From a virus, in UHGV virus genome UHGV-0116702: a stretch of DNA of 11,571 nucleotides; one strand, given 5' to 3'. The position numbers and the translations under genes were made by a program. The notes below the pieces were generated by a model that was not told the DNA's origin, searched no databases, and worked only from the letters and a program-made list of their open reading frames with translations. This document shows, one piece after another, positions 1 through 11,571 of this stretch (positions are counted from its first letter, which is position 1; each line of letters starts with the position of its first letter).

Positions 1-57
1 CGAATAGCTTCACTGTGTGGACGTGCTGCATGAACCGGGCGGCTGTCTAAAATCATC

Positions 58-1720
58 AAGGTCTAAATACACTATGAGGATGATTAGGGGTTGGTAGATG
101 ATTCGGATGAAGCATCCTCATTACAAGACCAACTATAGAACTACCTGTTAATAACAGGACAATATCAGGTGAATCCCTATTCAATTTAAAGGCATTTTCC
201 CAAGTATCTAAGCAGTTTTACACAGATTCTATGCAGTATCGGTATAGTCTCTTTTTACCCTAACTTATTGAAATATATAGAGAATCTGTGAAGTCTCTTT
301 TCAGGGAACTATGCAGGGTGTTAGTCGTTCCTCTCTCGACCCTTAGAAAAGTGCTATATACAGGACTATATAACGCTATTCATGCAGTTGGTCACCATAT
401 GTTACAGTTGCAAGAGATAACAATCAGCTATGTGAAAGTTAGGAAGTGATGGTTACAGTTGATTCGGTTAGTTCTAGGAATCAACCTCATAGTTCCTTCG
501 TAGTTCCTCTTAAAAAATCACTTACAGACACCTTAATATCTATACAGATTTCATGTAGAACACGATTAGTGCGTAAAACAGCTATTATGTTAAAAACGCA
601 CTGTATACGTATCAGTACTGATTTATAAGGGTTTTGTGTATTGGATGATAAGAGGCTATGCAGCACCTTGAGAGCATGTCTTCTAAGTCATTGATACATA
701 AGGTCACAGAAGTTTGTGTCTGTTACAGAGAAAACTGGATAGGATTTCACAGAACTATAAAATGTTACAGCTATTGATAGGTTAAATCTTCTTGATAGAT
801 GCTTTGAAGTGTGGTGAAGGTTTCTTGAGGTGGAGCTAAACAGATGCTATGAAGAAAGTCAATGATATTTTAACTGCTTTTGCAAAGGGGGTGCTATATC
901 GTGAATCTGGGGTACTTAACAGCCATCAATTGAGTGTAGATATTTTTTAAGATTATCGGTGAAGGGGAATGTAGAGGGGGGTACTACGATTTTTATAAAA
1001 ATTTTCAGACTCTGAAAAGTTGCTGTACAGATTTTGCACAATCTTACCAAGCCTCATAGAAAGCTCTGTAGCGAGTTTTAACCCCATTTTTAGGGGTAAC
1101 CTGTAGGTATGTACCACCCACCTTAAAATAAAGGGGTAAAATCGCTTAGAATGCGTTACAGAGCGTCTGAGAAGCTATATTCACAGATTTTACTAAAACC
1201 TCAGACTTTCTAAGTGGTCTTTTTAACAGGAGGGGTTCCCCTATGGTCACATATCCCCTCTCTCGCTTAGTGAGCTACACAGACCTAGAGAACATGCTCT
1301 GTAACGCCTTCACAAACATTGACTAAGGTCAACTTCATAAACTCAGAGTTAAGTTACCTTGAAAGATTCTACCAAGAAACTACACAGGTATTATTTAGTC
1401 TGACTGTGAAGAGATGTTTAACGGGAGGAAGAGAACCATGAAAACCGAAGGTAGGTTCTATCTTAACAGTGACTGTAAGAGATACCTGAAAAGATACTTA
1501 ACAGAACTACCAAGAAGAGAGGGAACGATAAAACCAGAGGTAGTGACCTTGTTAAGTAGGTCGTTTCAAAGTCTCTTAAAAGTCTGTTAAGTAAGGGCTA
1601 TGTGAACAATCTTACCATTTTGTCAATGCTTTTGTCTTTGACCTAAATCAATAAAATGTATCGTTTGATGTGCTTTTAAACAAAATAGCTAAAAAATCTT
1701 TTTAGAGGGGCGCTTCGCTT
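58..1720. other. ORF-poor, motif-dense non-coding region (candidate ori / ncRNA / regulatory hub)
   Basis: The six-frame track shows only one 60-aa ORF in 1.66 kb, and it has no RBS. Region contains the conserved box copies at 1063-1075, 1145-1171 and 1296-1308, recurring CTGTGAAGAG and TTACAG/TTAACAG motifs, and a 17-bp perfect palindrome TTTTCAGACTCTGAAAA at about 1003-1019. Confidence 0.5.
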
Positions 1721-2389
1721 GTGTCACATCCAATAATCCATATCGGTCGTTATCATGGTGGTTCTGATGACTGGCGTACACCGTATCGTCTATTTCATAA
1801 CCTGCATCGTGAGTATAGCTTCAGTCTAGATGGTGCTGCAACTGAGCATGACGCATTGTTGCCACGGTTCACCGATGATATTCACAATCAATCATGGGTT
1901 GGTGAACGGGTCTTCGTTAACCCGCCGTTTAGCATGGCTGAACAGTTCCTCCTAAAAGCCCCTGAAGCTGATGTGTGTGTATGTCTGGTTCCGCACAGGT
2001 CAAAGACAACTTACTGGCTTCGGTGTGTATATACAAACCCCTTCCTGCATGAGATTCGAACGTTACACCGAGCGGTTAAATACCTTCCACCAGCAGGAAA
2101 GAGAGGTGTTGTAGCGCGTTCACCGTTTGCAAGTTGCGTTCTGATATACAGGAACACACCCCGTAAACCGAAGGTTGAAGTTACCCAGACAATCTATTGT
2201 GGCGACACAATGCTTTTACTTGCCGTGGTTAACAGGGGTGGTTTACGTGGAAGACCTCATATACACGATGCACAGACGCTTGACAGGTTGATTAAAATGC
2301 ATGACCAAGGGCAATCCATCAAGAGCATCGCAGAATCGCTAAGAATGCCTCTAAGCACCACTTACAGGATTGTTCAAAGGTTGGGCTGA
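1721..2389 (+). CDS. Phage-type N6-adenine DNA methyltransferase (Dam-like) fused to a C-terminal resolvase/invertase-type HTH domain
   Basis: 222-aa ORF with GTG start 10 nt after a GAGGGG Shine-Dalgarno. N-terminal ~155 aa carry DWRTP, LDGAA and the WVGERVFVNPPF motif with the catalytic NPPF tetrapeptide, typical of the small phage Dam family. C-terminal ~60 aa (GRPHIHDAQTLDRLIKMHDQGQSIKSIAESLRMPLSTTYRIV) match the GRP arm plus helix-turn-helix pattern of Hin/resolvase DNA-binding domains. Confidence 0.7.
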   Translation: MSHPIIHIGRYHGGSDDWRTPYRLFHNLHREYSFSLDGAATEHDALLPRFTDDIHNQSWVGERVFVNPPFSMAEQFLLKAPEADVCVCLVPHRSKTTYWLRCVYTNPFLHEIRTLHRAVKYLPPAGKRGVVARSPFASCVLIYRNTPRKPKVEVTQTIYCGDTMLLLAVVNRGGLRGRPHIHDAQTLDRLIKMHDQGQSIKSIAESLRMPLSTTYRIVQRLG

Positions 2390-2428
2390 AATTCTCATAT
2401 AGAGCACTGATTACGAGAATGTTAAAGA

Positions 2429-2462
2429 GGCGATTTCCCCTTTCTGGGGTTATTCGCTTTTT
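2429..2462 (+). terminator. Candidate intrinsic terminator downstream of the methyltransferase gene
   Basis: GGCGATTTCCCCTTTCTGGGGTTATTCGC: nested stems GCGA/TCGC and CCCC/GGGG, followed by TTTTT at 2458-2462. Confidence 0.4.
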
Positions 2463-2597
2463 ACTGGAAGGGTTATTTTACAGAGGTTTTTCAAACCCCC
2501 TCAATAATAGAAACGAGCAACAAACGAAGAGCGAGAAATAAAATATTGAGACTGGTGAACGGGGTCTGTAAAGATTGTTTAAGGGGGCAGTTAAGAA

Positions 2598-2630
2598 GGT
2601 GGCTCTCCCTTTCTGGGGTTATCGCCTTGT
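2598..2630 (+). repeat. Second, degenerate copy of the CCTTTCTGGGGTTAT hairpin motif
   Basis: GGCTCTCCCTTTCTGGGGTTATCGCC shares an ~18-nt core with the hairpin at 2429-2462 but has a weaker T-tract (CTTGTATCTT). Confidence 0.35.
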
Positions 2631-2654
2631 ATCTTAGTGAGTCCAGGAAGTTCT

Positions 2655-2835
2655 CTGTGAAGAGTCTTGTCAGTCCTTTATATTGGGTGATTACAACTCA
2701 TTGAAAAATAAGTGTTTTTAGAATTTACTGTTAAGGTTACAGAGTTAACTGTGAAGAGACTTGTCAGTTCTCTATATATGGCTAATTACAACTAATTGAA
2801 AAATAAGAACTTTTAGAAATTACTGTCAGAGAGGT
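2655..2835. repeat. Two tandem ~94-bp direct repeats (about 85% identity over ~75 bp)
   Basis: Copy 1 starts CTGTGAAGAGTCTTGTCAGTCC at 2655; copy 2 starts CTGTGAAGAGACTTGTCAGTTC at 2749. Both contain ATTACAACT, ATTGAAAAATAAG and TTTTAGAA-TTACTGT. The CTGTGAAGAG head also occurs at 1403-1412 and in variant form at 286-295 and 1468-1477. Confidence 0.6.
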
Positions 2836-2946
2836 GAATACTTGATAGATACAGCTTTCCGGTTCTGTCAAGCTATTTTTTCATAGATAGCACAAAATGC
2901 TAAAGATACCCCTATACCATCTCGTACAGGGGATTTTGGAGGGAGT

Positions 2947-3123
2947 TTAACGGGGGTCTGTGTGGTCATTATCCTTAAGGTCAAGCGTCCATGTATGACC
3001 GAACAGTTTAAAGACAACAAGCACTCTGACAAGGACGTAACGAAGTAGCAGACCTGCAATAAGTCCAATACCTCCACCAGCCCATACATCAGGTGACCCC
3101 AGTTCAGGAGGGAGATTTACCAT
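2947..3123 (-). CDS. Hypothetical small membrane protein (58 aa, one predicted TM helix)
   Basis: ATG at 3123-3121 preceded by AAGGA with 6-nt spacing on the minus strand. Product MVNLPPELGSPDVWAGGGIGLIAGLLLRYVLVRVLVVFKLF... has a glycine-rich hydrophobic stretch. The track ORF 2947-3165 is the same frame extended to a TTG. Divergent from the 3421 operon. Confidence 0.3.
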   Translation of the reverse strand: MVNLPPELGSPDVWAGGGIGLIAGLLLRYVLVRVLVVFKLFGHTWTLDLKDNDHTDPR

Positions 3124-3136
3124 TAGTTTTCCTTGT

Positions 3137-3235
3137 AAGACGCTCTCAATCGCATTCTGACACAAAAAGTACCTGACCTTATGAGTTGACCTTAAGAGGC
3201 TGTTTAACTCGTTACAGAGCGATTGAAGAGGTCTG
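3137..3235. repeat. Inverted-repeat-bracketed element, copy 1 (conserved left and right arms, divergent interior)
   Basis: Left arm AGACGCTCTCAATCGCATTCT (3138-3158); right arm CTGTTTAACTCGTTACAGAGCGATTGAAGAGGTCTG (3200-3235). Arms are imperfect reverse complements sharing GCGATTGAG and GTCTG. Interior contains a doubled TGACCTTA. Confidence 0.55.
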
Positions 3236-3341
3236 TGTGCAATGCAATAACCATGTGACCACTCTCATAGCCACGCCTTTATATTTTACTCTCCCCATAG
3301 AACCATTATACCATAGATGTTAATAAATTGTTAAAAAATGC

Positions 3342-3370
3342 TTGACATTAGTCTTTGAAACTGCTAGTAT
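3342..3370 (+). promoter_or_regulatory. Candidate sigma70-type promoter for the 3421-4658 operon
   Basis: TTGACA (3342-3347), 17-nt spacer, TAGTAT (3365-3370); A/T-rich upstream tract TTAAAAAATG; about 50 nt upstream of the ATG at 3421. Confidence 0.45.
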
Positions 3371-3420
3371 TGTACATATAAGTTAACAGAGAATTAACAA
3401 TTATAAGGACTAGCTTATGA

Positions 3421-3900
3421 ATGAACGACAGAGAATTTAGAGCGATGCTTCAGGCATCAAGAGAACGCAAAGGCATTGACGAAGTAATTCGGGCAATTAC
3501 ACCGAGGAGTCGTTATATGCCAACCAGAAAGAGCACCCAGAACACTATTAAAAATTATTTGGCTAACTTCGACAGCTACGAGCAACTACCAAGTAAGCTT
3601 GATGATATTTTCATTGGATTCTGTAGAAGTGAAGGCCACCCGAAATACAACAAAAAACTATTTTATCTTCTAAAGAATCTTGACGAAATTAACTCAGCTA
3701 CCGTGACAAATTATCTTCAGCGACAAGCAACCAGACTTAGTTATGAATTACCAAGCGATAAATATTGTGCATTGCTTGCTGTAATGTGTGCAAAGCTAAT
3801 TGGTATTGTTGAACATCATATTGCCGTTGGTAATATTGAGCCAATGGAAAACGAGCAACCAGACTTTGAGTTTGACCCGTATATTTTGGAGGAATTTTAA
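3421..3900 (+). CDS. Hypothetical protein (159 aa) with acidic C-terminal tail
   Basis: ATG with AAGGA SD about 11 nt upstream; first gene after the candidate promoter; ends ...ENEQPDFEFDPYILEEF. No family recognised by eye. Confidence 0.6.
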   Translation: MNDREFRAMLQASRERKGIDEVIRAITPRSRYMPTRKSTQNTIKNYLANFDSYEQLPSKLDDIFIGFCRSEGHPKYNKKLFYLLKNLDEINSATVTNYLQRQATRLSYELPSDKYCALLAVMCAKLIGIVEHHIAVGNIEPMENEQPDFEFDPYILEEF

Positions 3901-3901
3901 A

Positions 3902-4183
3902 ATGAAAAACAAACACACATTAACCCGCATTTCAGAGGAAGCTTTTAACGAGCTTACCAGAATTAAACGAGCTACTAACTTGCCTCATCAAACTGTAATG
4001 CAGCTTGCAATTGCTAAAGAGGTTACTGAGTCGGATTTACTGAAATATCCAGTCTCTAAAGGTCGTAAACACATCCGAATTAGTCAGGACGCTTTAGCTA
4101 CTTTGAAGGCGCTTAACGGCTTTAAGATTGATATTGCCCGTCTATTGAGTCTTAAAATTCACAAGCTGTCTCTGGAGGTCTGA
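3902..4183 (+). CDS. Hypothetical small protein (93 aa), possibly DNA-binding
   Basis: ATG at 3902 lies 1 nt after the upstream stop, with GGAGGA about 12 nt upstream. Preferred over the track's TTG start at 3800, which overlaps the upstream gene. Two internally similar segments (TLTRISEEAFNELTRIK / KHIRISQDALATLKAL) suggest a repeated motif; the DNA-binding idea is speculative. Confidence 0.55.
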   Translation: MKNKHTLTRISEEAFNELTRIKRATNLPHQTVMQLAIAKEVTESDLLKYPVSKGRKHIRISQDALATLKALNGFKIDIARLLSLKIHKLSLEV

Positions 4184-4185
4184 TT

Positions 4186-4458
4186 ATGAAGCAATGGCGA
4201 GATGATATTAAACGGTTCTTTGCAACTTACTTCATGATTAATTACGAAACAGGAATGCTTGAATGGATTGATGGTGGAGAGGTTAAGACAAGAGATGACG
4301 CTTACGGTAATCCAATGATTCGTTATGGCACTCGTGATTATTATGTGAAATATGTCATCTGGTTTTTGCATCATGAAGTTCAGGCAACTAAAAAAATTAT
4401 CTTCAGGGATGGTAATAAAAGAAATTGCCACCCAAACAATTTACTACTGGAGATTTAA
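4186..4458 (+). CDS. HNH_3-family (homing-endonuclease-like) small protein, possibly catalytically degenerate
   Basis: 90 aa; ATG 8 nt after GGAGG and 3 nt after the upstream stop. C-terminal YYVKYVIWFLHHEVQATKKIIFRDGNKRNCHPNNL matches the HNH_3 pattern (YYVHRLV...VxHIDGNKxNNxxxNL), but by my manual alignment the HID histidine is Phe (IIFRDGNK). Confidence 0.55.
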   Translation: MKQWRDDIKRFFATYFMINYETGMLEWIDGGEVKTRDDAYGNPMIRYGTRDYYVKYVIWFLHHEVQATKKIIFRDGNKRNCHPNNLLLEI

Positions 4459-4658
4459 TGCTATGTATTAAATTCGAATATTTGACAGATAAAATGATTA
4501 AGCATGTATCAGACCTGCTCATCAAAGAAGATGGTTTCGGTGATGTTTGCAATCCAAAAGATATCTTCATTCACGCCACCAGCCCAAATGAAACACTGAA
4601 AACAGCAGTTACAGCGGAATGGTTTGAACGAAATAAAGTAGAATTAGGCTATTGGTAG
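4458..4658 (+). CDS. Hypothetical protein (66 aa)
   Basis: ATG overlaps the upstream stop (TAATG) with GGAG 5 nt upstream, indicating translational coupling. Track ORF 4425-4658 is the same frame from a TTG inside the HNH gene. Confidence 0.5.
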   Translation: MLCIKFEYLTDKMIKHVSDLLIKEDGFGDVCNPKDIFIHATSPNETLKTAVTAEWFERNKVELGYW

Positions 4659-4692
4659 TCCGAGACTTTAAGAGAAATTAGAAAAACAGCTT

Positions 4693-4816
4693 CTCAGACG
4701 CTCTCAATCGCATTCTAACGCAAAAAACTATCTTATTTTAGGGTGGGTAATACCACTGTACAGGCTACCCCTGAAAAAGACTGTTTAGCTCGTTACAGAG
4801 CGATTGAGGAGGTCTG
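4693..4816. repeat. Inverted-repeat-bracketed element, copy 2
   Basis: Left arm CAGACGCTCTCAATCGCATTCT (4695-4716); right arm CTGTTTAGCTCGTTACAGAGCGATTGAGGAGGTCTG (4781-4816). Arms are nearly identical to copy 1 (right arm 35/37) while the interior differs in sequence and length. Ends 22 nt before the ATG at 4838. Confidence 0.55.
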
Positions 4817-4837
4817 GTAAAAAGGAGATTTTAGGAA

Positions 4838-5161
4838 ATGAACAATTACGAATTACAGATTTTCGTTGATAGCGACACCGCTATGATGATTCAGGCTTTC
4901 ACTGATGTAGGTGTTAGCATTGACTTTGACAGGCTGTTAAGGCTAATGGCTGATAACTCAGAAACAATTGAAGATTTTATTCAGTCGGTGGAGTTTAACG
5001 AGCCTCGAATGATGCTACCAATTAAAGACAGCAACATGAAAAGATTGGTTATCGAGCAAACGAACAAATTCAGCATTAGCCCTGAAAGATATCTCAAGGC
5101 AGCTATAGCAATTTTGTACGCTGACAATATTCTGGTGACGGATTCTGTGAGGATTCACTAA
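4838..5161 (+). CDS. Hypothetical protein (107 aa)
   Basis: ATG 9 nt after AAAAAGGAG SD; no recognisable motif. Confidence 0.6.
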   Translation: MNNYELQIFVDSDTAMMIQAFTDVGVSIDFDRLLRLMADNSETIEDFIQSVEFNEPRMMLPIKDSNMKRLVIEQTNKFSISPERYLKAAIAILYADNILVTDSVRIH

Positions 5162-5238
5162 TGGGTTTAATAATTGCTTGGGCGTTGCTTGGCTTATTTG
5201 TTGGTTGCTGGGTAGGTAACACAGTAAATAAGAATTGA
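5161..5238 (+). CDS. Candidate 25-aa hydrophobic microprotein (MGLIIAWALLGLFVGCWVGNTVNKN)
   Basis: ATG overlaps the stop of the 107-aa gene (TAATG). Sequence is almost entirely one TM-like helix with a polar C-terminus. Too short for the ORF track; support is overlap geometry and composition only. Confidence 0.3.
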   Translation: MGLIIAWALLGLFVGCWVGNTVNKN

Positions 5239-5262
5239 TGTTACCAATCTGTTAAAAAGCTG

Positions 5263-5291
5263 TTGACAAATAACCTTGAGCATGACATAAT
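5263..5291 (+). promoter_or_regulatory. Candidate sigma70-type promoter
   Basis: TTGACA (5263-5268), 17-nt spacer, CATAAT (5286-5291). The track's 67-aa ORF 5263-5466 begins inside this -35 hexamer. Confidence 0.4.
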
Positions 5292-5481
5292 TGTATATAT
5301 GAGGATAGTCTTCTATCCGAAGTCTATGAGGAGAGCAATTCTCTCTTATTTTCTTTCAATAATCCGATGGATGGATATTCTGAGTTGGAAAGGTGCAATG
5401 CTTTTCGTCATGGCCTTTCAGTTTAGTCTGAGAGGCTATCTCAAAAAGTGCTTAATCATTCATTGAACCCTTTACAGCTTT

Positions 5482-5510
5482 GCCCTAACTCATGATTAGG
5501 GCTTTCTTTA
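5482..5510 (+). terminator. Candidate intrinsic terminator
   Basis: GCCCTAA-CTCATGA-TTAGGGC perfect 7-bp stem followed by TTTCTTTA. Confidence 0.45.
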
Positions 5511-5579
5511 AGAGTTTTTAAACAGAGCTTTTAAAGAAAGTTTTTCCTGAAACTTCGTTAACGTTAAAGCAAACCTTCA

Positions 5580-5613
5580 AAGCCCTTCACAGATTATGTT
5601 TAGGGCTTTTCTT
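5580..5613 (+). terminator. Second candidate terminator hairpin (related stem)
   Basis: AAGCCCT - 15-nt loop - AGGGCTT followed by TTTCTT; shares the AGGGCTTT(T)CTT tail with the hairpin at 5482-5510. Confidence 0.4.
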
Positions 5614-5708
5614 AATAGAGCATCTTTAATAAATCGTTAAGTCATCTTCTAAGTGTATTGGCGTTGAAGGTGCTCTATTAAGAAATAACCACTTAGAGGA
5701 AAATTATA

Positions 5709-6419
5709 ATGACAAACGATTTATATATTAACGGTAAAAAGGTTGATAGCTTCGGTGACTGGTCGCCACAGACTGAACATCCAGCTATCACTATCCAGCG
5801 TAAAGAACATGATGAAAGAATTGCACTTGAGCAAGAAATCCGAATGTCACCAAAGGTAATTACCTTTGTAGCTCCTGAGCCTCAAGAGATGCCTGATATT
5901 TGCAAAACTCAAGCATTACTTGAGCTTGAGCGTGAATATTACCCACTGCTGAAAGCACAAAGAATTAAACTTGATATTGCTTACGACAATGTGAAGAACT
6001 TTGAAGAGACTGAAAAGCCAACTGATTTTGATATTGAAGTGGAAATTAGACAAAACCCATTCGTATATTACTCAGTTGAGGATAATGATGGTTTTGGTAC
6101 AGCAAGAGAGAATATCTCAAAAGTTCTTCAAAACATCCCTGAAGGATTCCGTTTAATTGATGTTAGACCAGCTTCACGCGGTACAGGTTCATATATTTTA
6201 CTGTCTGATAAAACAGATGAAGAGATTTGTCAGTTAGCTGAAAAGAATCTACTTGAGCGTCATAGCAAAAAATTAAACAGATTTAAGCAAGAACTTGCTA
6301 ACCAGCTTCAGGCTATGAAAGACCTTATTTCTGCATATGAAACGCAGAAGAAGGTTGCTATGCAGGCTGATATTGAGCAGTTAGTGAAGATTTCTCAGAA
6401 ATACGCAAAGGCACTTTGA
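5709..6419 (+). CDS. Hypothetical protein (236 aa), acidic with helical C-terminal region
   Basis: ATG about 10 nt after AGAGGA SD; long uninterrupted ORF; no family recognised by eye. Confidence 0.65.
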   Translation: MTNDLYINGKKVDSFGDWSPQTEHPAITIQRKEHDERIALEQEIRMSPKVITFVAPEPQEMPDICKTQALLELEREYYPLLKAQRIKLDIAYDNVKNFEETEKPTDFDIEVEIRQNPFVYYSVEDNDGFGTARENISKVLQNIPEGFRLIDVRPASRGTGSYILLSDKTDEEICQLAEKNLLERHSKKLNRFKQELANQLQAMKDLISAYETQKKVAMQADIEQLVKISQKYAKAL

Positions 6420-6444
6420 CTATGAATTAAAAAGGAGGTGATGA

Positions 6445-6648
6445 ATGTTTGATTTAACGGAACGCTATGAACTTATTAAAGCAATTAGCGAGAGATTGAA
6501 AGAACAACCCAACAAACCAAAACGAATCAAATCATCCACCTCTAAACAAAATAACAGAATCAGAAAAATTGCTAAATGGTGTCTGGATAGATTACCAAGT
6601 GATTGTCAGATTGTCGGTGAAGATGGCAATTATTATCTGATTAGGTAA
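6445..6648 (+). CDS. Hypothetical small basic protein (67 aa)
   Basis: ATG 5 nt after AAAAAGGAGG SD; lysine/arginine-rich centre (KPKRIKSSTSKQNNRIRKIAKW). Confidence 0.55.
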   Translation: MFDLTERYELIKAISERLKEQPNKPKRIKSSTSKQNNRIRKIAKWCLDRLPSDCQIVGEDGNYYLIR

Positions 6649-6673
6649 AGAATTGGTTGGGTGAAAATCTACG

Positions 6674-6714
6674 GGAGAGATTATCGAGTGACATCGGTAG
6701 TTTCTCCTTTTTTT
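6674..6714 (+). terminator. Candidate intrinsic terminator
   Basis: GGAGAGA (6674-6680) pairs with TTTCTCC (6701-6707) with one G-U pair, then T7 (6708-6714). The 20-nt loop is long, so confidence is moderate. Confidence 0.4.
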
Positions 6715-6736
6715 GTATGTGTGCTACATGAAATCT

Positions 6737-6787
6737 GTAAAGCTAATATCCACACTGAAAAATAGAATTTACGTAGCTCACGCTTAA
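6737..6787 (+). repeat. Direct repeat A (51 bp, 38-bp perfect core) immediately upstream of the tape-measure gene
   Basis: GTAAAGCTAATATCCACACTGAAAAATAGAATTTACGTAGCTCACGCTTAA. Core 6750-6787 is identical to 9024-9061. Contains a -10-like TAGAAT with no good -35. Confidence 0.8.
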
Positions 6788-6804
6788 AGAGGTGAAAAAT
6801 ATGA

Positions 6805-8985
6805 ATGAGCAAATTCACAGTTGATAGTTTTATCGTTGAACTAGGCTTCAATGAAAACGTTATTAAGGGCTTGCAAAGAGTTGAAAAGGCAGCTTTGCAG
6901 TCAGCACAAAGAATTGAACGTAATTTGAATAGAGCGTTTAAGGTCGATACCAAGCAACTTGACAGCAACCTGACAAGTTCTTTAGGGCAACTTGAAAGGA
7001 AGTTTAATAAGACCTTTGACAAGATTGAACAGAGAGCAAGAAATACTAAAGCTTTCCAGTTTACCACCAGATTTAATGACACTGTTAATCCTCCAAAACA
7101 ACCGAGACAGCCACGAATTAGCGGCAACAGAGCAATCACAGCAGCGCATAGCGTGAATATGTCTAAGCTTGGTGATATTAATCCGCTGATGGCTAAAATG
7201 TTTAAAGCACAGTATTACAGCTTAAGCGGTAAGGCTGGTAATATTGGAAGTGAAAAGTTTAACGCTGAACTTGCAAAATTAAATCAATCTCTTCGTGAAA
7301 CGTTGAATAAACTCAGGTCACAGACAAAGACCACCAGCATTAACAATACAAGCGACGCATTTAATAATCTTGCAAGCAATGCAATCAAGTTATCTGGTGC
7401 ATTTTACTCTGTGATGGGTGCTCTTAACGCTTACAAGGCCATTATGAATGCAGGTCTTAAACGAGATTCCGCACAGAGAGCCGCTAAGTTTGTACTTGGT
7501 GATAAAGCATCTGAAGCTGAGGTATTTATTCGAAATTTAGCAGACAAGACAGGTCTTAATATCTCTGAAGGGCTATCAAGCTACGCTAAGTTTGCAGCAG
7601 GTGCTCAGGGTTCTATGTCACAGGAACAGACACAGGAGCTATTTGGTAATGCAACGGCTATGAGTCGCTTAATGGGGCTTTCTAACGATGAGCTAAACGG
7701 CATTTTGAAAGCATTTGAGCAGATGGCGAGCAAGGGCAAGATTCAGGCTGAAGAGCTTCGTGGACAGTTAGGTGACCGTATGGCTGGTGCATTTAAGCTA
7801 TTCGCTGAAGCATTGGGTATGACTGCTACAGAGCTTGATAAAGCGATGAAAGACGGGAAGATTTTAAGTAGTGATACTCTCCCTAAAGTCGCTAAACAGA
7901 TGGGCTTGATGATTGATAAAGCGGGTGGCTGGGCTGAAGTCGCTAAGAGCACTCAGACAGCTTTAGGGAAACTGGCTAACAACTGGGATGATACGATGGT
8001 GAAAATCTTCTCAGGTTCACAGGATGAGCTAAACGGCTTCTTATCCAGCCTGAGTAACCTGCTTAGTGAAATGGGGATGAGTTCATCTATCGCTGGTGAT
8101 GCTATCGGTGGACTTATCGACATGCTTAAAGCTGGTGTGGATGACATCCGTATCTTTAACAATCACCTTGAAGGCTGGATTCTACAGACTAAGAAGTTCT
8201 ATTACAGCCTTGATGACACTAAACGAAAACTACTTGATGAAGTCGGTGATGGTTTTATCAACTTCGTCAAAGGTCTTGCTATAGCGTTATCTGCAAAGAC
8301 ACTATTCAGTGCTGCTACAGGGGTTATAAACCTGACAAGAGCAATCACAACGTTAGGTACAAGAGCTAATCAGGTTGCTGGTCAGGTAGCTACTGGTAAA
8401 GGTGGTGGAAAACTGAAAGGTGTAGCTGGTGGTGTAGGTAGTGCTCTTGCAATTGGTTATGCTGATGACGGTTATGAAACAGCGTTAGCATTAGCTTCAA
8501 TGATTCCACAAATCAGAGGCGTCACTCTTGGTTTATATGCATTGAAGAAAGCACTGGATTTTATGAATCAGGAAGTAGTCAAAAACGCTAATATGCATCC
8601 ATCTGGGGTAGGTGTGGGTAGTGACTTTAATCCCGTGTATTCTGGTGACCCTAATAAACCGAATATGATTAACGAAGGATGGGGTAGAATTTTTAGTTCA
8701 ATGGGTGAATTGTTTAACAATGCCACAATGAATATTGCAAGATTCAATCATCCAGAGTTAAACAACATTAAGCAAGATTCAGCATTAACGAGTGCAGATA
8801 TTCAGAGTCTGAGGGATGAAATCTCTGCTTTAAGTAAGCGTATTCAGGAGCCTGTGAAAGTTTCCTTGGGTGGTGAAGTTGCCATTAAACCAGATGAAAC
8901 CAGCTTTATGACCTTTAGCAGTAATATCTACGACCAATATGCAGAAGCTACGCTATTAAGTTCATCATTCCCAGAAGATGATTGA
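6805..8985 (+). CDS. Phage tail tape-measure-domain protein (726 aa)
   Basis: N-terminal coiled-coil-like segment, then LNGILKAFEQMASKGKIQAEELRGQLGDRMAGAFKLFAEALGMTATELDKAMKDGKILSSDTLPKVAKQMG, which matches the conserved tape-measure core. Downstream there are glycine-rich hydrophobic stretches (ATGKGGGKLKGVAGGVGSALAIGYA). SD AAGAGG is about 13 nt upstream. Confidence 0.7.
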   Translation: MSKFTVDSFIVELGFNENVIKGLQRVEKAALQSAQRIERNLNRAFKVDTKQLDSNLTSSLGQLERKFNKTFDKIEQRARNTKAFQFTTRFNDTVNPPKQPRQPRISGNRAITAAHSVNMSKLGDINPLMAKMFKAQYYSLSGKAGNIGSEKFNAELAKLNQSLRETLNKLRSQTKTTSINNTSDAFNNLASNAIKLSGAFYSVMGALNAYKAIMNAGLKRDSAQRAAKFVLGDKASEAEVFIRNLADKTGLNISEGLSSYAKFAAGAQGSMSQEQTQELFGNATAMSRLMGLSNDELNGILKAFEQMASKGKIQAEELRGQLGDRMAGAFKLFAEALGMTATELDKAMKDGKILSSDTLPKVAKQMGLMIDKAGGWAEVAKSTQTALGKLANNWDDTMVKIFSGSQDELNGFLSSLSNLLSEMGMSSSIAGDAIGGLIDMLKAGVDDIRIFNNHLEGWILQTKKFYYSLDDTKRKLLDEVGDGFINFVKGLAIALSAKTLFSAATGVINLTRAITTLGTRANQVAGQVATGKGGGKLKGVAGGVGSALAIGYADDGYETALALASMIPQIRGVTLGLYALKKALDFMNQEVVKNANMHPSGVGVGSDFNPVYSGDPNKPNMINEGWGRIFSSMGELFNNATMNIARFNHPELNNIKQDSALTSADIQSLRDEISALSKRIQEPVKVSLGGEVAIKPDETSFMTFSSNIYDQYAEATLLSSSFPEDD

Positions 8986-9010
8986 TTTAACGGTGTTCTA
9001 CGTGAATAAA

Positions 9011-9061
9011 GCAAAGTTAATACCCACACTGAAAAATAGAATTTACGTAGCTCACGCTTAA
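9011..9061 (+). repeat. Direct repeat B (copy of repeat A) immediately downstream of the tape-measure gene
   Basis: GCAAAGTTAATACCCACACTGAAAAATAGAATTTACGTAGCTCACGCTTAA; 48/51 identical to 6737-6787, offset 2274 bp; lies about 80 nt upstream of the ATG at 9142. Confidence 0.8.
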
Positions 9062-9141
9062 CAGAGAAAATACTTATATATCAAAGGCTTGGTTAAAAAT
9101 GATTAAAATACACTAAGCCTTTGAAATCAAAGGAGAATTTA

Positions 9142-9930
9142 ATGATTTTTAGCAATCAAATCCGCTACAGTGGCAAAGATGGCGTTTACTTCCACTTAAG
9201 AGATAATGTAGATGCCTTCTTAACCTTATCAGCAACTGAGAACATGGAATTTGATAGCCCTATGCAGGTGACTACACAGAACATGCAATCAGGGCAAACC
9301 GTCACAGATAATGTGCAAAGAGCACCCAGAACAATCACTATTAGCGGTGTCGTTGTAGTTGGCTATGAAGGGAGCTTATTATTAACTCGTCAGGGTCAAT
9401 TAGTAGAGAACTTCATCGACACTCTTGAAAACTGGCGTGACCAGAAACAAATTATTTCGGTCATCTGTAAAGACGGAATTAAAATTGATGATTCCATTAT
9501 CACAAGTTTTAAAGCCTCTAAAGATGTTGGAATTTCAAACGGATTAAGAATCCAACTAACTTTTCAGGAAATTAACTTCAGAGCTGTTGTGGGGCAGACT
9601 GATATCTCGGCTGCAACTGGAAAAGCCGCGACTACGAACGATGGTGGTGTGACCAGTAAGAAGAATGCAGGTAACGTGACCACTGAACGCAATAACGCGC
9701 CTATGCTATCGTGCAAAGAGCTAATGAGTATTAGCGATGTATCCGGTTACGCTCCAGCTATCAGAAATGATATTCTCGATGCTCAGATTAAGTGTAATAA
9801 GGCTTGGAAGCTGGACTATTCAGACTTAACAGAAGCTGAAAAAACCAACGTCACCAATGCTAATAGTAACGCTGGTCGGGTAGCTTCAAAGCTTAAAAAG
9901 TACTCAGTGAACCCTCACAAAAAATACTAA
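9142..9930 (+). CDS. Hypothetical protein (262 aa); possibly tail-associated on positional grounds only
   Basis: ATG 6 nt after AAGGAG SD; the track ORF from 9121 is the same frame from an upstream TTG. Sits directly after the tape-measure gene, where siphophages usually encode the distal tail protein, but I see no diagnostic motif. Confidence 0.55.
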
Positions 9931-11450
9931 ATCTCTACTACATCAACATCTATTAAACCCCTCTCAGTGACTTCAGAAAGCGACTGTATAGCCTCTGTAA
10001 CGTCCTCTGAGGGGTTTTCTGTTATTGATAAGGTGATTGACTTACCATTGTGAAAAGTTACTTTACAGCGACGTTTAGCAGTATTTAAAACGACCTCTTT
10101 AACAGCACTTTTGATTATCAGTTGTGCTTCAATTCTCCCCGCCTTTGTAGTCAAGTCACAATCAGACAAACACCCCACATCAATAGATTTAAGGCGTTGT
10201 GTCTCCTTCTCGATATCCGCATCAACCTGTGATAGCTCACCTTTTAACTGCTTTAGTTTGATGGTAATAGCTGACAAATCTTCAATTTCAAGTGATAGCT
10301 GTACCAGCTTTTCAATATTGCTTGAGATGTGTTCACGGTGTAGCCTCAACATATCTATGGTATTCGTCGTATCGCTATCAAATCGGTCAAGACGAGATAG
10401 CAGAGTAAGCAATGTACCATCGGTTTGCTTACGTGAAAGTCCTTTAGCACTACAACGGTTTTCATTACGAAGAGGACAACGATAAATCCCGTTTCTTGTA
10501 TCACTAAAGCCTGTGATAATCAGAGCATGACCACATTCAGAACAACGGATAACACCTTTAAAGAGATTCACACTCAATGGTTTATCTGAAACAGACCTCT
10601 TTCCATAACGAGAATGTGATAGTTGTTGAACTTTGTAGAATGTTGTTTCATCTATAATTGCAGGATAATAACCAGCTATCTCCTCACAGCCTTTAGGTGT
10701 GAAGTAACCAATTACAGAGCGATTCTTCAGAAGGTCTTGTACTGAGGTTTGACCAAACTTACCAGCTTTATATTGGTTAAGCGTCTGGTGACCTTCATCA
10801 TTAAGAGTCCTGACAATCGCCCAGATAGATTTGCCCTCTAACCGTAGCTGAAAGCACCTCTTCACAGTTTCTACCTTCTCAGGTATTACAGAGAAGCTTT
10901 TACGGTCATCATTCAGCCTTAACCATGCAGGACAACGCCTAGAAATCTTGATACCAGCTTTAGCAGCTTCTTTCTTTGCATCCCATGCAGCTTGTATACG
11001 CTCAGCCTTACGTAATGATTCCTCATGCGCCCTTTGCATTATCAGAATGCTTTTAATCAGGGATAACGGGTCTCTTAAGCTTTCCTTTGTGTAATGTTCA
11101 CCATCGGACAAGGTGACTACATCTACACCAGAGCGAAGAATGTTTCGTAATAGCTCACTTGCTCGGTCTACGGCCTGACGTGACAAACGGTCTAAACTCT
11201 CGATTAGTAGTGTATCACCAGCTTTAACAAGCCCTTTCTCGATAGCGGTTAAAAAGTCACCTAAGCCACCTTTCAAGTGCTTACCAGTGAATCCACTCAC
11301 ACCTAAATCACGGAAGGATAAATCTTGGTCAAGGTAGTACTCAGGTTGAGCCTTAAGCCAGTCATTAACCATCTTAGACTGTCTGCGTAGTGAATCACCT
11401 CGGGATTGCTTCTCAGATGAAAACCTGATGTAAGAAATGGCACGTTTCAT
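9927..11450 (-). CDS. Large serine recombinase (integrase, 507 aa)
   Basis: N-terminal resolvase-type catalytic domain with the nucleophile motif YIRFSSEKQ and arginines in DRLSR; central recombinase region; Cys-rich zinc ribbon CSECGH...[11 protein letters not shown]; C-terminal coiled-coil-like segment. GAGGTG SD 4 nt before the ATG. Confidence 0.9.
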
Positions 11451-11476
11451 TGTTCACCTCAAAACTGATGCCCTAG

Positions 11477-11505
11477 ATTGTATCGTTTTAGATGGTGTAT
11501 TTAAA
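11477..11505 (-). promoter_or_regulatory. Candidate promoter for the recombinase gene
   Basis: On the minus strand: TTTAAA, 17-nt spacer, TACAAT, about 25 nt upstream of the recombinase ATG. The -35 is weak. Confidence 0.3.
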
Positions 11506-11571
11506 CGTGTCTAATAAAAATCACCCGATTAACGCCGCGCTGATGTAAACCGCGATTAAGCGTTTGTTCCT

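Follow-up and report, generated by a model that had tools for sequence, protein, structure and literature searches.

The window analysed here is an 11,571-nt stretch of the virus genome UHGV-0116702, and it holds a mobile island of ~11.5 kb (about 57–11518) that splits yecE between yecN and yecD. Between a Dam-family methyltransferase gene and a converging small open reading frame (ORF) for a putative membrane protein, the island carries two adjacent direct repeat units of 94 bp, c1 and c2 (Table 1). The repeat copies are real and, as the comparison of related islands indicates, are under purifying selection. This E. coli island resembles a parasite of Felix O1-type phages. Our tentative reading is that the repeat serves as a cis-acting protein-binding module for helper-dependent DNA transactions. 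Strict iterons and tandem promoters, which an initial annotation had put forward, are less likely than such a module.

The anatomy, conservation and duplication history of the units, the enrichment of their motifs and the kinship of the island with the phages were obtained directly from the sequences. That a protein binds the units, which partner this would be and which process it would serve are what we infer from them.

Anatomy, history and conservation of the repeat units

Tandem Repeats Finder delimits an array at 2655–2826 (period 95, 1.8 copies, 85% matches, 1% indels, score 265), and a repeat-pair search of the window returned the same pairs at 85–86% identity with a spacing of 94–95. 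This bears out the initial description of two adjacent ~94-bp copies at ~85% identity in the intergenic DNA of a mobile element. Compared over their full length, c1 and c2 of the window are ~77% identical. The positions that are invariant in all copies (cTGTGAAG, CT, CAG, TATA, TGG, ATTACAACT, TTGA, ATAA, TTT and TA.AA) delimit three parts, which are a two-box inverted head, an A/T-rich core and a tail. In the head, TGTGAAG, CT and CAG are invariant in 24 of 24 aligned copies, and the leading C is absent from one copy; CACAGAAG is the proposed mutant form of the head box CTGTGAAG. The core contains a site resembling that of integration host factor (IHF), which sits within the invariant block ATTACAACTnATTGAAAAATAAG. 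The site reads ATCAA-N4-TTG in an E. coli variant (L010) and in a Citrobacter island (L054), and GTCAA-N4-TTG in another Citrobacter island (L057). Several imperfect dyads lie within the repeats, the internal 8-bp boxes are of mixed orientation and irregular spacing, and GC content in the first 6 kb reaches its minimum (0.305) in the stretch that holds the repeat.

Relatives of the region 2390–3420 are found in 420 of 5,426 complete E. coli genomes (~8%), at several integration sites, and island relatives also occur in Shigella, E. albertii, E. fergusonii, Salmonella and Citrobacter; other family members are integrated at yciI and ymdF. Copy number was compared across these related islands, as the initial annotation had proposed, and one or two units are present at every examined unit-bearing locus. 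Among 36 loci from genomes and metagenomes, a set biased by the search patterns used for its collection, 30 have two units, six have one and none has three. In 18 loci that were picked by blastn spread or by protein rather than by the unit, two units are present in ten, one in seven and none in one. No examined locus carries three units. In 324 genomes the matches cover at least 80% of a query laid across the c1/c2 junction, compared with 420 genomes for the wider region, and therefore about three quarters of the carriers have both copies.

In every island c1 and c2 are only ~75% identical to each other, which is below the identity of either copy among islands (Table 1). The c1 units thus cluster together and the c2 units likewise, and therefore the duplication is old and two paralogues have been maintained. 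No unit-bearing island has lost c2 entirely, and in c1/c2 hybrids it survives as the tail. The single-unit islands contain either a pure c2 or a hybrid with a c1 head and a c2 tail, and the crossover points of the hybrids differ, which indicates independent losses by unequal recombination. A single diverged unit, CTGTGAAGGGGTCTTGTCAG...TTGGGTGATTACAA...CATTGAyGAATAAGG, is found in the E. coli variant (L010 and L053) and in the Citrobacter islands, with one unit in each of the three Citrobacter contigs spanning the region, which makes one unit the probable ancestral state.

Constraint was measured as mean pairwise identity on 15 loci that were not chosen by the unit itself. The identity is 0.916 for the last unit and 0.919 for the 43 bp 3´ of it, compared with 0.82 at the third-codon positions and 0.93 at the first and second codon positions of the adjacent ORF; nearby leader sequences reach 0.78. 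Sequence and copy number hence do not show the free variation among islands that the initial annotation had named as grounds for refuting its reading.

Box motifs and kinship with Felix O1-type phages

The head of the unit recurs elsewhere in the island. The exact 10-mer CTGTGAAGAG is found at 1404–1413, 2655, 2749 and 10858 (minus strand), and with up to one mismatch it has seven matches against 0.78 expected, a number that none of 200 shuffles reached. Its core CTGTNAAG is present at 22 places where 2.2 would be expected (shuffle maximum 6), and GTTACAG occurs 11 times against 1.6 expected. Because the counts of CTGTGAAGAG and CTGTNAAG exceed both expectation and shuffles, the recurrence of the head lies far above chance. 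The initial annotation had noticed this recurrence and placed one copy at 1403–1412, one base off; the head variants that it listed are present, CTGTGAAGTC at 286 and CTGTAAGAGA at 1468.

The units contain the densest same-strand cluster of CTGTNAAG boxes in the island, and the motif also crowds the terminal region of the phages, which comprises ~1.65 kb between convergent genes and is full of CTTGTTAR/CTGTTAAG-type boxes every 11 bp. Within 2560–2880 (321 bp), CTKTNAAG occurs five times on the plus strand and not once on the minus strand (0.2 expected), and the phage terminal region has 15 on the plus and seven on the minus strand (1.6 expected). The density of CTNNNMAG is 46.7 per kb in 2560–2880 and 50.9 per kb in the phage terminal region, compared with ~12 per kb in phage genes. 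A lag of 11 is the top lag of the autocorrelation in the phage terminal region (0.39, with a mean of 0.28) and, more weakly, also in the window at 57–1720 (0.317). Phage boxes of the same kind also occupy the leaders behind early promoters. No role is stated for the phage terminal boxes in the published descriptions (PMC3185647, PMC4837284). The boxes common to island and phage point to a shared DNA-recognition code.

Kinship with the phages extends beyond the boxes. The tape-measure and Dit-like baseplate genes of the island share 87–95% DNA identity with Felixounavirus phages, and tblastn finds no phage homology for the other island proteins. Felix O1-type phages have exact terminal repeats of 570–613 bp (PMC4837284, PMC6454146), and a direct terminal repeat (DTR) is annotated in phage HP1. 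By blastn and nhmmer, the window is homologous at 826–1066 to the right boundary and at 1454–1618 to the middle of the Felixounavirus/Mooglevirus DTR, with nhmmer E values of 1e-7 to 1e-3; the order of the two segments is permuted relative to the phage. In sister islands without the Dam gene, position ~1722 of the window is joined to ~2470, and therefore the repeat forms the right end of one continuous non-coding region of ~2.1 kb.

GATC does not occur in the island (57–11518; ~43 expected), in the sister island L001 (3057–14289; 42 expected) or in phage garuso (L011 and L012; 300 expected), and the flanking E. coli DNA has a GATC count as expected. The absence of GATC in these phages is already published (PMC5477317, PMC4690856); our literature search found no report of an island that shares it. 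CTAG is also depleted (8 versus 30). The island, which is free of any GATC, yet encodes a Dam-family methyltransferase.

A palindromic mini-element of ~48–57 nt, GGTTGGTAGATGATTCGGATGAAGCATCCTCATTACAAGACCAACT, lies at the left end of the island (84–140) and in L004 (3010–3065). It is also found just left of the tandem repeat in other islands (L007 and L044, at about 2590 of the window) and within the terminal repeat of phage NBEco004, and it looks mobile between phage and islands. The hairpin at 2598–2630, upstream of the units, is weakly like one in the phage region preceding the DTR, and 4 of 100 shuffles scored equally. By eye, the unit looked similar to the phage polymerase/g22 intergenic region and its head to a segment of the DTR, but neither likeness scored above shuffled controls, and both were rejected.

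The traits of a satellite are present in the island, which has an integrase, a defined integration site, a length of ~11.5 kb and only two tail genes as virion genes. Its putative dependence on a helper phage for induction, replication and packaging has indirect signs, namely terminal DNA and tail genes of helper type and the shared lack of GATC. We consider it possible, though doubtful, that the island family comprises undescribed satellites of virulent Felix O1-type phages (Ounavirinae), which would copy DNA from the genome ends of the helper, avoid GATC and supply their own tape-measure and baseplate proteins; the 94-bp module would then be a satellite-specific loading site for helper or host proteins in replication or concatemer packaging. 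Our literature search, whose coverage is incomplete and does not prove novelty, found no paper on a Felixounavirus satellite or on the phage terminal boxes. None of 20 metagenome contigs is a free, circular or DTR-ended island, and the contigs of 10.6 kb and 11.4 kb are chromosomal fragments without terminal overlap.

For the repeat itself, we propose the following. One ancestral unit of ~94 bp was probably duplicated in the Escherichia lineage, after which both paralogues were kept under purifying selection. The module stands at the right edge of the helper-like ~2.1-kb non-coding region. Each unit has inverted CTGTNAAG-type boxes in its head, an invariant A/T-rich core with an IHF-like site and a second box pair at its tail, and would act as a scaffold for a DNA-binding protein, with the core bending or organising the scaffold. 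The module may thereby serve recruitment to the replication or packaging of the Felixounavirus helper, or a control that the helper triggers. A helper-dependent role is suggested because the same family of boxes is concentrated, strand-biased and phased at 11 bp in the terminal region of the helper. The looser idea of a repeated cis-element that binds protein thus stays the best, if tentative, reading.

Several observations weigh against this reading. The 94-bp unit matches the phage genome with nhmmer E values of at least 0.26 (at least 2 in the terminal regions), and its best blastn matches equal those of shuffled queries; since the full unit shows no detectable homology to the phage, its connection to the helper comes down to a family of 8-bp motifs and the context. 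The autocorrelation of the repeat region (2560–2950) lacks a clear 11-bp phasing. About a quarter of the carriers have one copy or none, and at least one distant relative (L052) has no unit, so that two copies are not essential. IHF-like matches are frequent by chance (33 in the window against 22 expected), and the core site is a lead only. Finally, the high conservation could partly reflect a recent spread of the module by recombination, with a mosaic boundary at 2647.

Alternative explanations and known systems

The repeat is neither coding nor a known RNA. The plus-strand ORFs 2419–2541 and 2546–2704 are broken by indels in sister islands. The unit has no Rfam match at E values up to 1, no tRNA or tmRNA was found, and the covariation term is ~0 on both strands, which gives no sign of a structured RNA. 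A type I antitoxin antisense to the mRNA of the small membrane protein was rejected, since the complementarity stays within the range of shuffles. On inspection, LexA boxes (CTG-N10-CAG) and CRP boxes (TGTGA-N6-TCACA) misfit in spacing or in the second half-site. The unit as a whole has no homology to the rest of the window.

The initial annotation ascribed promoter-like hexamers to each copy. The hexamers exist, with TTGTCA at 2666 and 2761, TTGAAA at 2700 and 2795 and TTTACT at 2723 (ATTACT in the second copy), but their role as promoters is not upheld. The pair TTGAAA-17-TTTACT has T at position 2 of the -10 element, where A is essential, and is not called by the promoter scan. The element also varies among islands (TTTACT, ATTACT, GTTACT, GTTGCT, ATCACT and GTTATT), and the arrangement is lost in Citrobacter. 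Tandem promoters, one per unit, that drive a small non-coding RNA are an unlikely explanation, whether they point rightward into 2830–2935 or leftward from the minus-strand CTGACA/TTAACA-18-TATTTT. The leftward version draws on minus-strand sites that score 9/12 in both units with A2 and T6 present, and on a yTrACA '-35' and a TATTTT '-10' that are kept in most E. coli copies; however, Citrobacter and the L010/L053 variant have TATTCA or TATTCG in place of this '-10', and because the DNA left of the repeats is variable, a leftward transcript would have no conserved body. For a rightward transcript, a conserved plus-strand stretch of 90 nt lies 3´ of c2, with a weak hairpin and T-run at 2853–2883 and the terminator further downstream (Table 1), but RNA covariation and an Rfam match are lacking. 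The unit also shares TGAAAAATA and TAGAAnTTAC with elements 5´ of the tape-measure and baseplate genes, although TAGAAT is itself unconserved in those related elements. The six promoter-like sites that the scan counts do not significantly exceed the 3.0 ± 1.8 of shuffled sequences.

A classical origin, with iterons or an enhancer like crr of satellite phage P4 that is bound by an island initiator and with the A/T-rich core as unwinding element, is rather unlikely. Direct repeats in the most A/T-rich stretch would suit it, as would the recurrence of a short box in other non-coding DNA of the island, in the way the P4 octamer recurs in ori and crr, and several island proteins are unassigned, among them the weakly DndE-like product of ORF 3902–4183. 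Against it, searches of Pfam, PHROGs and NCBIfam recognise no Rep, primase, helicase or initiator family in any island ORF, and no DnaA box lies near the repeat. Islands have no more than two units, and at 94 bp these are longer than the ~20 bp of an iteron, which makes the strict iterons of the initial annotation doubtful; a single unit is found in 7 of the 18 loci not selected by the unit and in all three Citrobacter contigs that span the region.

Comparison with known systems gives partial likenesses. The crr of P4 consists of two direct repeats of ~100–120 bp with an initiator-binding box that is also present at the origin, and P4 encodes the alpha primase-helicase, which binds the crr boxes. 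The island repeat likewise has two direct units of ~100 bp, each with several short boxes that recur in the non-coding DNA of the element; unlike P4, the island has no recognisable alpha-type protein, the box sequence differs and the one-copy state is common. Plasmid iterons measure ~17–22 bp and occur in 3–7 copies adjoining a rep gene, as in pSC101 and the R6K gamma origin, which also have an IHF site. The direct repeats and A/T-rich IHF-like core in non-coding DNA are in common with these, whereas one or two units of 94 bp and the lack of a rep gene in the island are not. In cosB of lambda, the terminase-binding R sites flank the IHF site I1 and serve DNA packaging. The repeated boxes on either side of an IHF-type core, here putative, resemble this arrangement, but there is no sequence similarity, and the helper has exact short terminal repeats instead of cos ends (PMC4837284). 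No small terminase is known in Felix O1-type phages (PMC3185647). The terminal region of Felixounavirus/Mooglevirus is alike in its box family (CTKTNAAG, CTTGTTAR and CTNNNMAG), box density and strand bias, and differs in that the 94-bp unit cannot be aligned to the phage and has no 11-bp phasing. As in PICMI and PLE, the island is small, bears an integrase and seems tied to a virulent helper; its size is ~1/7.5 of the helper genome, which is comparable to PICMI, and PICMI is packaged as ~8-mer concatemers (PMC10803314). Unlike these, the island has helper-derived tail genes, a large serine recombinase and no recognisable replication gene, and its helper dependence is putative. The text consulted on PICMI describes no equivalent tandem repeat (PMC10803314).

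The repeat could also be an operator or insulator for DNA-binding proteins of the island itself, namely the Dam-HTH_7 protein, the product of ORF 3902–4183 or the small serine recombinases that sister islands encode. It would then lie where the variable cargo slot meets the conserved core, perhaps as a binding region of resolvase or regulatory type. A Dam-like protein with a terminal resolvase-type GRP+HTH domain is encoded just 5´ of the repeats, many sister islands have an HTH_7 serine recombinase of 182–190 aa in the same region, the repeats contain imperfect dyads and the homology break at 2647 is a module border. Since the repeats are kept in islands without the Dam gene, and at least one island (L008) lacks both Dam and any annotated small recombinase, we regard this explanation as rather unlikely. 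A neutral intergenic duplication that seems conserved through recent module spread is very unlikely, because the units are more conserved than the synonymous sites of the neighbouring gene, the c1 and c2 paralogues remain separate in E. coli, E. albertii and metagenomes, with neither decay nor homogenisation, and the core is recognisable in Citrobacter, even though copy number differs among islands, one copy was repeatedly lost by unequal recombination and L052 has no unit.

Island context and implications

The coordinates of the repeat parts and of the neighbouring features are summarised in Table 1. The Dam gene is a discrete insertion that is missing from several sister islands that keep the repeats. 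A homology break at ~2647 in many islands is the left edge of a conserved core that extends to ~3470. The divergent promoters are the convincing promoter candidates of the island. A run of small genes has no assigned function; it includes an HNH protein and the 93-aa ORF 3902–4183, whose match to DndE is weak and whose sequence, read by eye, appears ribbon-helix-helix-like.

Table 1. Features of the repeat and its surroundings in the window.
Feature	Position	Strand	Remarks
Left non-coding region	57–1720	+	11-bp periodicity; CTNNNMAG enriched
Dam-family adenine methyltransferase fused to resolvase-type GRP+HTH_7 DNA-binding domain	1721–2389	+	
Upstream box CTGTAAAG (2566) and hairpin (2598–2630)	2566–2640	+	
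Repeat unit c1, 94 bp	2655–2748	+	89% identity among islands; deleted in ~1/4 of carriers
c1 head, imperfect inverted box pair CTGTGAAG-N3-CTTGTCAG	2655–2673	.	Same head in c2 at 2749–2767
IHF-like core TTTCAATGAGTTG (consensus WATCAANNNNTTR, 1 mismatch)	2694–2706	-	Second copy at 2789–2801
c1 tail dyad CTGTTAAGGTTACAG (CTGT-N7-ACAG)	2728–2742	.	c2 tail carries CTGTCAGAG instead
Repeat unit c2, 94 bp	2749–2842	+	Better conserved copy, 96% identity among islands
Conserved segment 3´ of c2: dyad ACAGCTTTCCGGTTCTGT, box CTGTCAAG (2865), T-run	2843–2885	+	Identity 0.92 among islands
Intrinsic terminator hairpin ending the leftward transcript of the putative small membrane protein	2909–2932	-	
Small ORF, 58 aa after first ATG	2950–3126	-	Converges on repeats; same conserved core module; hydrophobic stretch, putative transmembrane segment (read by eye)
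Divergent strong sigma-70-type promoters (candidates)	3305–3370		Minus TTAACA-18-TATAAT (11/12); plus TTGACA-17-TAGTAT (10/12)
Large serine recombinase	9927–11450		Integrase

The terminator hairpin is exactly inverted in sister island L009, with its loop flipped. The main rightward promoter of the island (3322–3373) resembles the early promoter region of phage garuso at 47887–47938, a weak match with an E value of 0.42, and its leader bears a AGTTAACAGAG-type box that is found in phage leaders.

Over its C-terminal GRP arm and HTH_7 domain, the Dam protein shares 30% identity with the C-terminal end of the small serine recombinase that sister islands encode. This recombinase, of 182–190 aa with HTH_7, is encoded in the left non-coding region of many sister islands in either orientation (L007 713–1282, L010 1710–2261, L043 3206–3754, L044 3022–3570, and L046, L047 and L049–L053), and the window has none. 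An inversion of the recombinase segment between islands was rejected, as no reversed blastn match was found, and the oppositely oriented genes are therefore different cassettes.

Further repeated elements are present in the island. Two copies of a ~110-nt element, ~90% identical, lie at 3132–3240 and 4690–4816, with an inverted partial copy at 1146–1207; the element has a long-range stem in which GACGCTCTCAATCGC pairs with GCGATTGAAGAGGTC. One copy separates the minus-strand promoter from the small membrane-protein ORF, the other is upstream of ORF 4838, and the first copy is missing from islands L001 and L010. A repeated element of ~50 nt, CCACACTGAAAAATAGAATTTACGTAGCTCACGCTTAA, with flanking inverted arms CTACGTGAA/TTTACGTAG is found at 6735–6800 and 9010–9075, directly 5´ of the tape-measure and baseplate genes, and is absent from the phage; it has TGAAAAATA and TAGAATTTAC in common with the core of the tandem unit. 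The direct repeat ACCATGAAAACCGAAGGT/ACCCCGTAAACCGAAGGT is located at 1435–1452 and 2158–2175, and a related element, GATAAAACCAGAGGTAGTGACC, at ~1519–1540 (estimated coordinates) has a conserved counterpart midway along the terminal repeat of the phage; a resemblance to the half-sites of invertase gix is tentative. The segment 5264–5510 holds a candidate non-coding RNA, with a strong sigma-70-like promoter by eye (TTGACA-17-CATAAT) followed by ~200 nt with no convincing ORF; a hairpin with a T-run lies at 5477–5508 and a second, similar terminator at 5581–5612.

If the reading as a protein-binding module fails, the repeat would merely be conserved intergenic DNA in a mobile island. If it is true, the repeat would provide an experimental handle on how strictly lytic, therapeutically used phages handle a small chromosomal island. 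Felix O1-type phages serve in the typing and biocontrol of Salmonella and E. coli, and their packaging signal, origin and temporal control are not described (PMC3185647). Islands of this kind could alter the outcome of phage therapy, either because they interfere with the phage or because the phage transduces them.

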